Positions 6,001 to 9,000 of a DNA stretch of 19,134 nt are shown one piece after another. The stretch lies in IMG/VR virus record IMGVR_UViG_2690316344_000004. One strand, 5' to 3'. A program made the position numbers. Source of the DNA: a virus (taxonomy: Duplodnaviria > Heunggongvirae > Uroviricota > Caudoviricetes). Within the stretch, counting starts at the first letter, position 1. Each line of letters starts with the position of its first letter.

Positions 6001-9000
6001 GAGACGAAAAACGAGCAGGTGGTATTGCACCAGATAATTGATCGCCGGACAGCATCACTGTGCAGTGTCGGGATGTTAACAAACCTGAATCATGCCGCAA
6101 TGAGTACGCTTCTTGGTGAGAGGATTATGGACCGCATGACCATGAACGGTGGTCGATGGGTGACATTTAACTGGGATAGCTGGCGTCCAAATGTCAGCAA
6201 TATGAGGGTTGTGAAGTAATTTTGTCCGGAGGAAATTTTAATGGAAACCGTATCTGACGCACTGAAAGCACTGAAAAAAGCCTCTTCACATGTGGTGGCA
6301 GCTCGCCTTGGAATCAGTCGTGAAGAGGCTGTCAACGAGCTGTGGGAACTCAAAAGAAATGGCGTCGTTGATAAAACTGGTCACACCTGGTTTCTGGCTG
6401 GCGAAGGTGAATCCCGGGTAACCGAAGAGCGGCCAGTAAAATCTGAAGCACAGGATATGCTGACCGGGGAGGTCGAACAAAAAGTTACCGCCGACATGAT
6501 GATTGAGTTTATCGGTCAGGATGGGGCTAAAACGTGTGAGGAACTGGCGGGTAAGTTCGGTGTCAGTACTCGCAAGGTTGCTTCCACGCTGGCGGTGGTA
6601 ACCGCAACGGGGCGGCTGGCACGCGTTAATCAGAACGGTAAATTTCGTTACTGCATGCCGGGCGATAATTTACCAGCAGAGCCGAAAGCCGCGCTGGTAA
6701 CGGAAAGTGATGGTAAGGCCTTTCCTCAGCCAGCAGGTGCTGCGTTACCAGTCCGGGAAGCCGCAACACAGGAAAAAATTAAAACAGAAACTGTGGCGGA
6801 CATTGTGCAGCCGTTGCCATCGTTTACCGAAACGCAAGCAGATGAGCTGATTTTTCCGTCCCTTCGCAGGGCAAACTTGGCGCTGCGCAGGGCGAAAAGT
6901 GATGTTCAGAAGTGGGAGCGAGTCTGCGCCGCGCTGCGGGAGCTGAACAAGCACCGGGATATTGTTCGACAGATTACTGATTCTTCCCGCCGTGTTGTAT
7001 CGGAAAAGTGATTGCCGGAGGCGCTTATGGCAAAAGTATTTACACAAGAAGAGCGGGAAAAAATTAAAGGGCAGGTTGTTGAACTTGTACGTCTGAGCGG
7101 TCGCGAGACGTTGCGGCAACTGGAAGCCAAGACAGGTGCGACAAGATATCTGATGAGTGTTCTCGCCAGAGAGCTGGTTGCCAGTGGCGATGTATACAAC
7201 TCTGGTTACGGGTTATTCCCGTCTGAACAGGCGCGTAAGGACTGGCAAAACGCCCGCAAAAAACTCTCAAGGGCAAATCTGAAGAAACCATCTGTGGTTG
7301 ATCCGGACCTTATCTGGTCGTTACCAGACGGCGAAATACGCCGCTACGACAGGCGCCTGAATATAATCTGTCGCGAGTGCCGGAAGAGCGAAGCTATGCA
7401 GCGTGTACTGGCATTTTATCAAGGAAATGTTAGGTATTTTAGACGTTACTAGATTAAAGAGCATTAGTTCAGATGTGAATTGACATTTTCATGGCGCAGG
7501 GTAGAGCCAGCGTGGTTGTCCGCTTTGTGCCAGAAGCGGACATAGCAGGTGCCAGATGCATTTGTTATTCTTCATTGAATTGAGCAGTATCCTTAACAGG
7601 AACTCTAAATACATAAATGAAGATGAAAAACATGTCTGAAGTGTTGACCCAAGAAAAGCTTATTTTTGTTGCCCAGAGACTAAAGGCCCTCGCGCAGTCA
7701 GGCCTGACCTATTCAAAAGACGTCTTTGACAAGGAACGCTATGAAGCCTTGCGTGAAATTGCCGCTGGACTGCTGAGTTCGCAGTTTGATATTAGCCGCA
7801 ATGATTTGTTTCATGTATCGGAAACGGGTTACGCGACGCCCAAAACAGATGTGCGTGCGTTTATCCTGCGTAATAATCGTATTCTGATGGTGAAAGAGGC
7901 TGCAGATGGATTATGGAGTCTTCCTGGCGGATGGGCAGATGTTGGAGATACACCTTCTGAAGCTGTGCGTCGAGAGGTCGAAGAAGAAACCGGATTAAAA
8001 GTCAGAGTGACTAAACTATTGGGAGTTTGGGATCGTAATCTTCACGGCCATCCGCCTTTACCCTGGCATGTTTACAAGCTGATTTTTCTCTGTGAAGAAG
8101 TAGGTGGCAGCCTGTCAATCAGCCATGAGTCACTCGATGCTGATTTTTTTGATGTCAACGACCTGCCTGAATTGTCGCTTTCAAGAATTGTGCCTGAGCA
8201 GATTGCTGTCAGCCTGAGAGTAGCGAAAGGTGATGAAAAAACATGGTTTGATTAACTTTCTTCTGCAACCATTAAGGAATGGCAATGATATTCAACGCTA
8301 AGGGTTTTTTATTCGATATGGACGGTACGCTGGTTGATTCAACAGCCGTAGTGGAAAGCGTCTGGAGAGATTTTTGTGCAGAATACGGTCTTGATACTCA
8401 GGCTGTGATTGCTTACGCACACGGGCGGCAAACGATTGATACACTGACGCATTTTATTGGTGCAGGTGAGAAAACCAATAAAATCGCGGCCTCACTCGAA
8501 GAGGTTGAAATCAACACGACAGAAGGCGTTACTGAAGTAAAGGGGGCCGCTGCACTCTTATCAAAACTGCCACCGGATAGCTGGGCACTTGTCACTTCTG
8601 CAGGCAGAATGCTTGCCGAAAACAGGATGAAAGCGGCTAATCTCCCCTTACCCATAGTAATGGTGTGTGCAGAAGATGTAATGACGGGAAAACCAAGTCC
8701 CGAGGGTTACATCAAAGCAGCTTTGGCTTTGGGCCTTGAGCCTGGTGAATGCGTGGTATTTGAGGATGCATCTGCGGGTATAAAAGCAGGGCTGGCAAGT
8801 GGAGCTTCGGTAATAGCTGTTCAGCCTGACGCTCTGGGATCATCTGAAGCCCATGCCGTCAGCGAACTGTCTGACATTATGGTCAAGATTTCCGGAGAAC
8901 GTTTCAATATCATCTGTGGTTAATCACGTTACACAATACGCATCAATGGACGCTGAGTAGCTCGCGAGTTTTAAACTTCCAACGTCCGCTTTTCGCTCAA

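Follow-up and report, generated by a model that had tools for sequence, protein, structure and literature searches.

The described genes closest to those reported here are lambda ren and ydaW of the Rac prophage of E. coli K-12. In lambda, the gene order is O-P-ren, and Ren is a strongly basic protein of 96 aa (pI 9.9). Ren does not itself exclude but guards the phage against exclusion, and ren is dispensable for growth on non-lysogens. Lambda ren mutants were reportedly found by Toothman and Herskowitz in 1980 to be sensitive to Rex exclusion, and Thomason and Court are said to have described in 2022 that RexAB-dependent host phenotypes are relieved by Ren. In a bacterial two-hybrid assay, the Rex proteins interact with O and Ren, and Thomason et al. 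placed Ren in an O-Rex-Ren interaction network as a protein “likely involved in DNA replication” (bioRxiv 10.1101/2021.04.19.439022).

K-12 YdaW (b1361) has 186 aa and lacks a C-terminal module, which was lost by an internal deletion of Rac joining ydaW to rzpR/trkG. K-12 ydaW has been isolated as a gene that blocks RcaT, the toxin of retron-Sen2 (bioRxiv 10.1101/2020.06.22.160242); that result comes from a plasmid-library screen and concerns the C-terminally truncated allele. Another family, DUF977, was predicted earlier to contain a winged helix (PMC2686095) and is also found fused to Fic domains. Its name in phages, LygF, is taken from the Salmonella Enteritidis Sdr I region, and no functional meaning is attached to it.

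The window analyzed here is a stretch of 19,134 nucleotides from a virus of the Caudoviricetes (IMG/VR record IMGVR_UViG_2690316344_000004), in which the order O-like, DnaC-like, ORF1, ORF2 is found. ORF1 and ORF2 are almost certainly ydaW and lygF of a Rac/Qin-type lambdoid E. coli prophage, encoding small non-enzymatic winged-helix proteins. The features of the region are as follows.

3692..3721, + strand: PR-like sigma-70 promoter, TTGACA-18-TAATAT, from a consensus scan
5473-6219: gene for the DnaC-like helicase loader, directly upstream of ORF1
6228..6232, + strand: ribosome-binding site GGAGG of ORF1, 8 nt 5′ of ATG 6241, from the sequence
6241..7011, + strand: ORF1, YdaW-family protein of 256 aa (Pfam DUF1627, PHROG 630)
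7017..7021, + strand: ribosome-binding site GGAGG of ORF2, 5 nt 5′ of ATG 7027, from the sequence
7027..7452, + strand: ORF2, LygF/DUF977 protein of 141 aa, a member of PHROG 142
7527..7568, + strand: end of the conserved block, with a weak terminator-like hairpin at 7542-7568, from a scan
7617-8255: NUDIX gene, downstream of ORF2
8279-8923: HAD gene, downstream of the NUDIX gene

ORF1 extends from ATG 6241 to TGA 7009-7011 and ORF2 from ATG 7027 to TAG 7450-7452, in agreement with the original prediction of two ORFs with GGAGG ribosome-binding sites at 6241-7452. A mechanical ORF list starts ORF2 at TTG 7012, while ATG 7027 is favored by RefSeq homologues and by the ribosome-binding site. The prediction had found no family for either protein, which was wrong. 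ORF1 matches PF07789 (DUF1627) with 326.4 bits against a cut-off of 28.1 (E 2.9e-98; profile 1-155 of 155, residues 91-245) and phrog_630 over nearly its whole length (E 1e-132; residues 1-252, profile 1-252 of 253). ORF2 matches PF06163 (DUF977) with 97.9 bits against 22.1 (E 6.5e-28; profile 1-133 of 134). RefSeq labels the two “DUF1627 domain-containing protein” and “DUF977 family protein,” and in GenBank phage records they go by the names YdaW and LygF. E. coli protein clusters are 99% identical to ORF1, and ORF2 is 89-97% identical to E. coli DUF977 proteins and appears to be a typical LygF/DUF977 member, with no difference of substance. The reading frames are real, as had been assumed: besides the RefSeq annotation of both, orthologues at 59-87% amino-acid identity have stop-free frames, and dN/dS values of 0.38-0.50 for ORF1 and 0.09-0.26 for ORF2 indicate purifying selection. 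The prediction had also considered that a routine family with known function might emerge; the families have emerged, and an experimentally established function of DUF1627 or DUF977 was not found.

In the window, ORF1 and ORF2 share a frame and are one TGA and 15 nt apart, and two ENA proteins (P0122, 403 aa; P0124, 372 aa) carry both Pfam domains, as if the in-frame TGA 7009-7011 were read through to give a single ORF1-ORF2 fusion protein. This is extremely improbable, because the frame relation is not conserved (+1 in Rac-SA53, +2 in Shigella phage 75/02 Stx), by which programmed read-through is effectively refuted. Furthermore, ORF2 has its own ribosome-binding site and ATG, and each gene is also found apart from the other. 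Only one contig each underlies P0122 (2.4 kb) and P0124 (18.6 kb), which are likely products of a sequencing error or of an alternative-code gene call; in P0122, the ATG is changed as well.

The domains of the two proteins were mapped as follows (AF2, AlphaFold2).

6241..6408, + strand: wHTH1, N-terminal winged helix of ORF1, residues 1-56; AF2 helices 4-11, 16-23 and 27-39
6490..6654, + strand: wHTH2, second winged helix of ORF1, residues 84-138; AF2 helices 84-94, 99-106 and 110-123, strands 126-128 and 135-137
6829..7008, + strand: C-terminal module of ORF1, residues 197-256; single AF2 helix 197-255, pLDDT 71-83
7027..7221, + strand: winged helix of ORF2, residues 1-65; AF2 pLDDT 75-90
7360..7419, + strand: Ren-type C-terminal motif of ORF2, NIICRECRKSEAMQRVLAFY, residues 112-131; BLASTP against lambda Ren

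ORF1 has the full-length YdaW architecture, as judged from its coverage of phrog_630, an alignment of 38 diverse full-length relatives and the AF2 secondary structure: a winged helix, an acidic linker, a second winged helix, an acidic Pro/Ala-rich linker and finally a conserved motif with a long basic helix after it. The AF2 models were built from shallow alignments, and that of ORF1 is of low confidence (pLDDT 55). wHTH1 is the best-conserved part of the family (METVxDALKAMGKA...W50 in a 39-member alignment) and is related to wHTH2 with an hhalign probability of 94%. wHTH2 is basic (pI 9.2) and is found in zero to two copies among the relatives, and YdaW-family proteins have one to three winged helices in total. 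The C-terminal module consists of the motif (I/L)PSFT..R.DDL(I/V)(I/F)PS and, after it, a single long helix of basic character (pI 10.4). It is kept in 39 of 39 diverse family members, is paired with just one winged helix in P0419, P0391 and P0482, and is a candidate oligomerization or partner-binding element. K-12 YdaW, located at the orthologous position after ydaU-ydaV, is 55% identical to ORF1 over residues 1-154, spanning both winged helices; unlike this truncated protein, ORF1 represents the intact 256-aa form. The family is narrow, with 154 cluster representatives among 1.84 billion proteins, and the linkers of ORF1 are fast-evolving; these features, together with the separate occurrence of the two genes, suggest that ydaW and lygF are accessory in character.

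The winged-helix-like stretches noticed originally are borne out in both ORFs by AF2 models, Foldseek and PDB-profile matches, and weak HTH matches in Pfam and NCBIfam. For ORF1, the latter are all sub-threshold (HTH_Crp_2, 20.3 bits against 27; HTH_PafC, 20 against 32; HTH_metalloreg of NCBIfam, 16 against 55). Foldseek searches of the PDB and BFVD returned generic winged-helix matches only, at E about 2.6e-3 or weaker, and those of ORF2 are all of this fold (MarR, AspA, GntR and IclR, E about 1e-2). Sequence searches of solved structures with single ORF1 or ORF2 gave nothing significant, no enzymatic domain was found in either protein, and NCBIfam and PADLOC gave no family-level match for either. 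With the PADLOC defense models, ORF1 gave only fragments at E ~1e-3 to the HTH regions of Csa3/CARF, and ORF2 gave none.

The top PDB profile match of the YdaW family is to the Z-alpha/Z-beta domains of ADAR1 and ZBP1 (summed E 3.9e-7), which also appear in several Foldseek matches; the per-domain i-Evalues are weak (1 and 0.021), and the resemblance is at the fold level only. wHTH2 of ORF1 matches ADAR1 Z-alpha/Z-beta and AspA profiles. The conserved residues of a Z-alpha domain, in ADAR1 numbering, are Trp195 in the wing and two residues of the recognition helix that contact Z-DNA/Z-RNA, Asn173 and Tyr177. The consensus of the YdaW family has alanine opposite both of these contact residues, and a Z-alpha domain was therefore rejected for YdaW; ORF1 is not matched by Pfam's z-alpha model either.

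The same fold raises the question of sequence-specific transcription factors, that is, delayed-early regulators of phage or host promoters. Both proteins have winged helices and weak matches of the MarR, Crp, ArsR and MntR types, and K-12 YdaW appears in a set of 58 E. coli transcription factors whose function is unknown (PMC9308461). The neighboring Rac protein YdaT has been proven to be a regulator that binds DNA, and it acts on host operons as well (PMC11879457; PMC9986795). However, this role is improbable for ORF1 and ORF2. The ORFs have the winged-helix fold in common with MarR, ArsR and GntR repressors and with the archaeal centromere-binding AspA, but all matches lie far below the curated family cut-offs; no MarR-family match was obtained for either at E 0.01, ORF2 matching only DUF977, and membership of the MarR/ArsR-type families was found for neither. 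The AF2 models of both lack a MarR-like N- or C-terminal helical dimer interface, and neither flanking dimerization helices nor a ligand or metal site is present. Tandem winged helices with long disordered linkers and a terminal helix are unlike the architecture of these proteins, and a number of winged helices varying from one to three is unusual for an operator-specific repressor. Moreover, no repeats or palindromes that could serve as binding sites or operators adjoin ORF1 or ORF2, the repeats found being the origin iterons and the immunity operators.

ORF2 is, on sequence comparison, an enlarged homologue of lambda Ren. It is 45 aa longer, with about 10 additional residues at its N-terminus and insertions in the interior, within residues 61-98. 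Both belong to PHROG 142 (ORF2, E 1.4e-46, profile 1-113; Ren, E 1.6e-41, profile 11-110), and their alignments match each other with an hhalign probability of 95.7% (E 9.4e-9, 77 columns; both alignments shallow, Neff 1.3-1.9). By BLASTP, the C-terminal motif of ORF2 is 60% identical (12/20) to residues 73-92 of lambda Ren (E 5e-7), and the common pattern N(I/L)I(C/F)xECRxSxAMxRVLAxY is invariant or nearly so in both families. Like Ren, ORF2 has an N-terminal winged helix, followed in the AF2 model by a basic helix at residues 67-83, is strongly basic (pI 10.0), and is encoded in the slot after the replication genes. Overall identity is about 28%, and Ren, unlike ORF2, falls short of the Pfam DUF977 model. 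The homology is based on a winged helix, a very common fold, and a motif some 20 residues long. The LygF-type tail AFYRGNFQ is also present on some Ren proteins, which shows that the 3′ ends of lygF and ren recombine. wHTH2 of ORF1 is also similar to the LygF/Ren winged helix (hhalign probability 93%); homology of the YdaW C-terminal module to that of LygF/Ren was rejected (probability <1%).

ORF1 and ORF2 appear to be co-transcribed at the end of the early-right replication operon. The PR-like promoter, which overlaps operator-like 16-mers detected by a repeat scan, likely drives a cro(ydaS-like)-ydaT-O-like-DnaC-like-ORF1-ORF2 operon, and no other promoter- or terminator-like site was found by scanning between 3721 and 7542. 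The coordinates agree with the predicted location between the replication module and NUDIX-HAD, and the ren-equivalent slot after the helicase-loader gene was correctly recognized, ORF2 itself being a Ren homologue. Framing the pair by the NUDIX-HAD cassette was misleading, as the occupants of the slot after ORF2 vary. At about 7527 (query position 2128), most genome matches stop and the homology to most E. coli prophages is lost, and beyond the conserved block lies a variable moron region that holds QueH, NUDIX-HAD, hok/sok or toxin-antitoxin genes. The slot is occupied by NUDIX-HAD in the window and by QueH, its commonest occupant, for example in L003. A functional link of ORF1/ORF2 to NUDIX-HAD was rejected, since only 3 of 5,426 complete E. 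coli genomes, and 3 of 72 informative viral contigs, have them together; NUDIX-HAD is an incidental neighbor.

DNA similar to ORF1 is found in 51% of the 5,426 genomes and DNA similar to ORF2 in 75%. A profile scan with a narrower alignment located YdaW directly downstream of replication genes at nine genome loci. In a divergent YdaW clade, a helicase loader is encoded directly upstream in 72 of 76 viral loci (47 DnaC/IstB-like, 25 lambda-P-like), and an O-like gene takes this place in the remaining four. A DUF977 gene comes next in 41 of 74 loci; in eight, the next gene is lar, known for its anti-restriction role. The short DUF977 genes (~85 aa) that follow divergent ydaW genes lack the Ren-type motif. 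Of the 33 loci in one cluster of YdaW proteins with identities of 80% or more, 16 have a lambda-P-like loader upstream and 17 a DnaC-like one, and in 28 a DUF977 gene follows. Thus, ydaW and the DUF977 gene form a cassette in the ren slot that is independent of the type of the preceding loader, and a loader-specific partnership of YdaW was rejected, as the clades do not co-vary with the loader fold. The slot directly after the replication genes is held in every context examined, and YdaW- and LygF-type genes are each found without the partner in phage genomes. The two are not a toxin-antitoxin pair: they occur separately and match no toxin or antitoxin family in Pfam, NCBIfam or PADLOC.

Such strict placement fits equally well with a role in replication itself. 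YdaW and LygF/Ren might act in initiation at the origin DNA or on the DnaB-loader complex, a partner common to DnaC-like and lambda-P-like loaders, and might assist or time helicase loading or temper loader toxicity. Indeed, the genes are always downstream of replication genes in the same operon, an iteron-type origin lies at 4830-4926, 1.3 kb upstream of ORF1, and the winged helices and the terminal helix are basic. Among LygF loci, moreover, YdaW is present in all 40 with a YdaW gene immediately before LygF and a gene for a loader, and it is missing from the 27 with an O-like gene immediately before LygF; the loader directly upstream in most divergent-clade loci and the published O-Rex-Ren network point in the same direction. 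This role is nevertheless rather unlikely. Near-identical YdaW proteins follow unrelated loader folds, which argues against a loader-specific contact, and one or both of the genes are missing from many lambdoid phages that share these replication genes. The family and structure searches gave no sequence or fold match to known replication factors (DnaD, DnaT, PriC), binding-site-like repeats are absent next to ORF1 and ORF2, and lambda ren can be dispensed with on non-lysogens.

PHROG 142 belongs to the category “moron, auxiliary metabolic gene and host takeover” and has the label “Ren-like exclusion protein,” and the slot borders the variable moron region, as would fit host-protective superinfection exclusion or defense genes expressed from the prophage against other phages. 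The label is a misnomer, since Ren protects the phage from exclusion. With no promoter-like site between the PR-like promoter and the two genes, repression is expected in the lysogen, and PADLOC gives no match; a host-protective role is very unlikely.

The preferred reading, with a probability of roughly 0.4, is that the ydaW-lygF cassette has a Ren-type counter-exclusion function and protects phage replication from abortive-infection or exclusion systems. The proteins would be made early, alongside the replication proteins, and, being basic and of the winged-helix type, would bind DNA or protein complexes associated with replication, or else would bind the sensors directly. In this way, the phage's own replication would be kept from triggering systems of the host or of a resident prophage, such as Rex-like or retron-type toxin-antitoxin systems. 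ORF2 would be the Ren-like effector and ORF1 a multivalent adaptor whose C-terminal helix oligomerizes or docks. We infer both the binding of DNA or protein by ORF1 and ORF2 and any anti-exclusion activity. Points against this counter-exclusion function are that rexAB is not present in the window, that PADLOC has no match, and that the ORF1 model has the low pLDDT given above.

A more far-reaching version, which is doubtful, is that YdaW and DUF977/Ren constitute a dedicated two-protein counter-defense cassette of enterobacterial lambdoid phages that masks replication-initiation intermediates or the hijack of DnaB. Expressed with the replication genes, it would let the phage evade sensors such as Rex-like and retron toxin-antitoxin systems; the cassette could then stand after any type of helicase loader, and lar could take the neighboring position.

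Judging from sequence, both genes belong to already known, catalogued and very common E. coli prophage families, and the copy in the window is not unusual; so far, the result amounts to routine annotation. Its useful by-products are an explicit connection of lambda Ren with DUF977/LygF that Pfam does not have, a domain map of YdaW, and the mobility of the YdaW-DUF977 cassette independent of loader type. Because they are very common and their slot also hosts anti-restriction genes, ydaW and lygF are reasonable and cheap candidates for an anti-defense screen. If true, the counter-defense reading would provide a family and a mechanism for lambda's 45-year-old ren phenotype, and a positive anti-defense result for ydaW/lygF would explain what Ren does.

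The window belongs to a Rac/Qin-type lambdoid prophage of Escherichia coli, and three complete E. coli chromosomes are 98.8% identical to it across 3.6 kb. ORF1 (256 aa) and ORF2 (141 aa) lie among the following features.

3148–3624, minus strand: repressor
3692–3721: PR-like promoter
3728–4072: Cro/YdaS-like gene
4056–4481: YdaT-like gene
4489–5466: O-like initiator
5473–6219: DnaC/IstB-like helicase loader
6228–6232: GGAGG of ORF1, 8 nt 5′ of its ATG
6241–7011: ORF1
7017–7021: GGAGG of ORF2, 5 nt 5′ of its ATG
7027–7452: ORF2
7542–7568: weak terminator-like hairpin downstream of ORF2
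7617–8255: NUDIX gene
8279–8923: HAD gene

The ATG at 7027 is taken as the ORF2 start, as in the RefSeq homologues, in place of the TTG at 7012 of a mechanical ORF list. No promoter-like or terminator-like sites were found between the PR-like promoter and the two ORFs.

Several other elements of this prophage are recognizable. Two or three copies of operator-like 16-mers (TATTAGGCATAGCCTA) flank the repressor gene on either side (3014–3060 and 3653–3720), arranged as 23–40-nt inverted copies about 600–620 nt apart. On the right they overlap the PR-like promoter, and on the left a near-consensus minus-strand promoter (3039–3011). The O-like gene contains origin-like iterons at 4830–4926 (at least four copies of TTGACCC(G/C)TC with 15-bp spacing) and a 33-nt inverted repeat (4860–4926), in the “ori inside O” layout of lambdoid phages. 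Rfam matches above the gathering score at 1752–1803 (−), 9319–9493 (+), 13738–13987 (+) and 14064–14254 (+) comprise DicF sRNA, a sok/hok module, three tRNAs (Met-CAT, Arg-TCG, and Arg-TCT) and sRNA STnc100, the usual furniture of Qin/Rac-type prophages. Furthermore, a diverged tandem duplication at 14391–16114 (79–88% identity, period about 1,205–1,214 nt; ORFs 14477–15754 and 15691–17544) takes in the leader and the 5′ portion of a DUF1737-SASA-DUF6645 gene for a NanS-p-like sialate esterase. The first copy, of 425 aa, runs at its end into the repeated leader; the second, of 617 aa, is intact.

Comparison with orthologues at 59–87% amino-acid identity revealed no stops in either ORF and dN/dS values of 0.38–0.50 for ORF1 and 0.09–0.26 for ORF2, confirming the original prediction of two real ORFs with GGAGG ribosome-binding sites. 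ORF1 matches Pfam DUF1627 (PF07789; 326 bits against a cut-off of 28) and, end to end, PHROG 630; ORF2 matches DUF977 (PF06163; 98 bits against a cut-off of 22) and PHROG 142, labelled “Ren-like exclusion protein”. They are named “YdaW family protein” and “LygF” in GenBank phage records, and “DUF1627 domain-containing protein” and “DUF977 family protein” in RefSeq. Clusters of proteins at 99% identity to ORF1 and at 97% identity to ORF2 hold hundreds to thousands of members each. Similar DNA is found in 2,767 (ORF1) and 4,053 (ORF2) of 5,426 complete E. coli genomes, and a single genome often has it in several prophages. The statement that the two proteins cannot be placed in any family is therefore wrong. 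Their identity as YdaW and LygF is near certain; they are already catalogued, extremely common prophage genes, and the finding is real but ordinary, the copy in the window departing nowhere from the family norm. The gene lygF owes its name to a difference region of Salmonella Enteritidis, and the name says nothing about function.

The YdaW family is small, since an exhaustive HMMER search of 1.84 billion proteins gave only 154 cluster representatives. Two regions stay constant across 39 diverse full-length members, the winged helix at the N terminus and a module at the C terminus, (I/L)PSFT..R.DDL(I/V)IPS followed by a basic helix EIRRTKxxLxxLExxRxAxRxxxKH, while zero to two central winged helices are present per protein. 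K-12 YdaW differs from these in being a truncated form of 186 aa lacking the C-terminal module. A ydaW gene with 83.5% DNA identity to the E. coli one is also found in phage vB_Apl-pPE4 (PP818812.1, 10084–10806), whose recorded host is Actinobacillus pleuropneumoniae; a likeness so unexpectedly close for a Pasteurellaceae phage suggests an origin from an E. coli prophage or a wrongly assigned host.

The AlphaFold2 model of ORF1, good for secondary structure only (mean pLDDT 55), has winged helices at residues 4–39 (plus wing) and 84–137, disordered acidic linkers between, and a single long helix at 197–255; its second winged helix is basic, as is the C-terminal helix. In ORF2 (mean pLDDT 69), a confident winged helix (7–64), the fold predicted for DUF977 in 2009 (PMC2686095), is followed by a basic helix (67–83), disorder (85–114) and a helix pair (109–132) carrying a motif shared with lambda Ren. 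The winged helices of ORF1 are mutually related (94%) and also related to that of LygF/Ren (93%), and no relationship was detectable between the C-terminal modules of YdaW and LygF/Ren. Foldseek searches of PDB and BFVD returned only generic winged-helix proteins (E about 2.6e-3 or weaker). With the YdaW family profile, the top PDB match was ADAR1, in its Z-alpha and Z-beta domains (E 3.9e-7); a Z-DNA-binding domain was rejected, and the likeness is one of fold only, because the Z-DNA-contacting Asn and Tyr align to alanine. Neither ORF encodes an enzymatic domain, and no NCBIfam or PADLOC model matched them. K-12 YdaW is on a list of uncharacterised transcription factors (PMC9308461); that ORF1 and ORF2 act as conventional transcription factors seems quite improbable.

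ORF2 is, by sequence, a relative of lambda Ren. Ren itself matches nearly the whole PHROG 142 profile (E 1.6e-41), and the DUF977 and Ren alignments match at 95.7% probability (E 9.4e-9, 77 columns), with 60% identity between the C-terminal motifs NIICRECRKSEAMQRVLAFY (ORF2) and NLVFKECRQSAAMKRVLAVY (Ren). The link is invisible from Pfam because Ren reaches no Pfam model. Compared with Ren in the joint alignment, ORF2 is extended at the N terminus and carries insertions within residues 61–98; both proteins are strongly basic (pI 10.0 for ORF2, 9.9 for Ren). Given this kinship, the “ren-equivalent position” assigned to the pair is literally correct for ORF2. Some lambda-Ren-type proteins (P0258, P0272, and P0291) carry the LygF-type tail ...AFYRGNFQ in place of ...AVYGVKR, so the 3′ ends of ren and lygF recombine, and the common 3′ motif is a recombination joint between these alleles.

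YdaW and DUF977 together form a cassette inserted into the ren slot. In phage records and genomes, ydaW/lygF always lie directly downstream of replication genes, in several immunity and replication contexts. The two genes can also be found apart. In mEp460-type phages, LygF comes straight after a single O-like or “primosomal protein I” gene, and in PhiR46_1 straight after an exonuclease gene; YdaW occurs without LygF in PPompW phages and in Serratia and Enterobacter prophages. On 80 viral contigs, close LygF relatives are preceded by YdaW in 40 cases and by an O-like gene in 27, and are followed by QueH in 20, NUDIX in 3 and another gene in 48. In one YdaW cluster at 80% identity or more (n = 33), the loader is P-like in 16 and DnaC-like in 17, and a DUF977 gene comes next in 28; YdaW thus travels with DUF977 and varies independently of the loader fold. 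Another 80 contigs (loci L100–L179) sample a divergent YdaW clade with about 25–30% identity to ORF1. Of 76 loci there, 47 have a DnaC/IstB-like loader immediately upstream, 25 a lambda-P-like one and 4 an O-like gene. Immediately downstream, 41 of 74 encode a DUF977 protein, which is short (about 85 aa) and has no Ren motif, and 8 of 74 carry the anti-restriction (restriction-alleviation) gene lar. An established anti-restriction gene therefore shares this slot.

The cassette has one mosaic joint at its boundary with the loader gene, before YdaW, and a second past ORF2, where most genomes cease to be homologous at about 7527. The NUDIX-HAD cassette is an incidental neighbour, found with this replication block in only 3 of 5,426 complete E. 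coli genomes. It sits in a variable slot more often occupied by QueH, and its NUDIX gene (within 7617–8923) matches the PADLOC candidate-defence model PDC-S07 (E 6.6e-10).

In the window, ORF1 and ORF2 are in frame with one TGA between them (7009–7029), and among database proteins P0122 (ENA, 403 aa) joins the two exactly as ORF1-Gly-ORF2 and has Arg in place of the start Met of ORF2; P0124 (372 aa) is a frameshifted version. Production of such a fusion by read-through is nevertheless unlikely, as the in-frame TGA is not conserved, the relation being +1 in Rac-SA53 and +2 in phage 75/02 Stx.

Lambda ren mutants are reportedly sensitive to Rex exclusion, and Ren is said to relieve RexAB-dependent host phenotypes. 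In two-hybrid assays, Rex proteins interact with O and Ren, the latter considered “likely involved in DNA replication” (Thomason et al., bioRxiv 10.1101/2021.04.19.439022). An intrinsic replication accessory role for ORF1 and ORF2 is the main rival reading; their position strictly after loaders, and the lack of YdaW in modules without a loader gene, speak for it, and we regard it as rather doubtful. We tentatively prefer a Ren-type counter-exclusion role (probability about 0.4), which fits the homology of ORF2 with Ren, the indifference to loader type, the accessory, narrowly distributed and fast-evolving character of the genes, and the sharing of the slot with lar. It also fits a plasmid-library screen in which K-12 ydaW, in its 186-aa form without the C-terminal module, was among several prophage genes blocking the retron-Sen2 toxin RcaT (bioRxiv 10.1101/2020.06.22.160242). 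Exclusion by the two proteins that protects the host is unlikely. For counter-exclusion, ORF1 and ORF2 would be made early, alongside the replication machinery. Their targets would be DNA or protein complexes associated with replication, or else the sensors, and by binding these they would stop the phage's own replication from setting off abortive-infection systems; ORF2 may act as the Ren-like effector, with ORF1 as a multivalent adaptor. The YdaW-DUF977 cassette is a cheap, plausible anti-defence candidate, and could explain lambda Ren.
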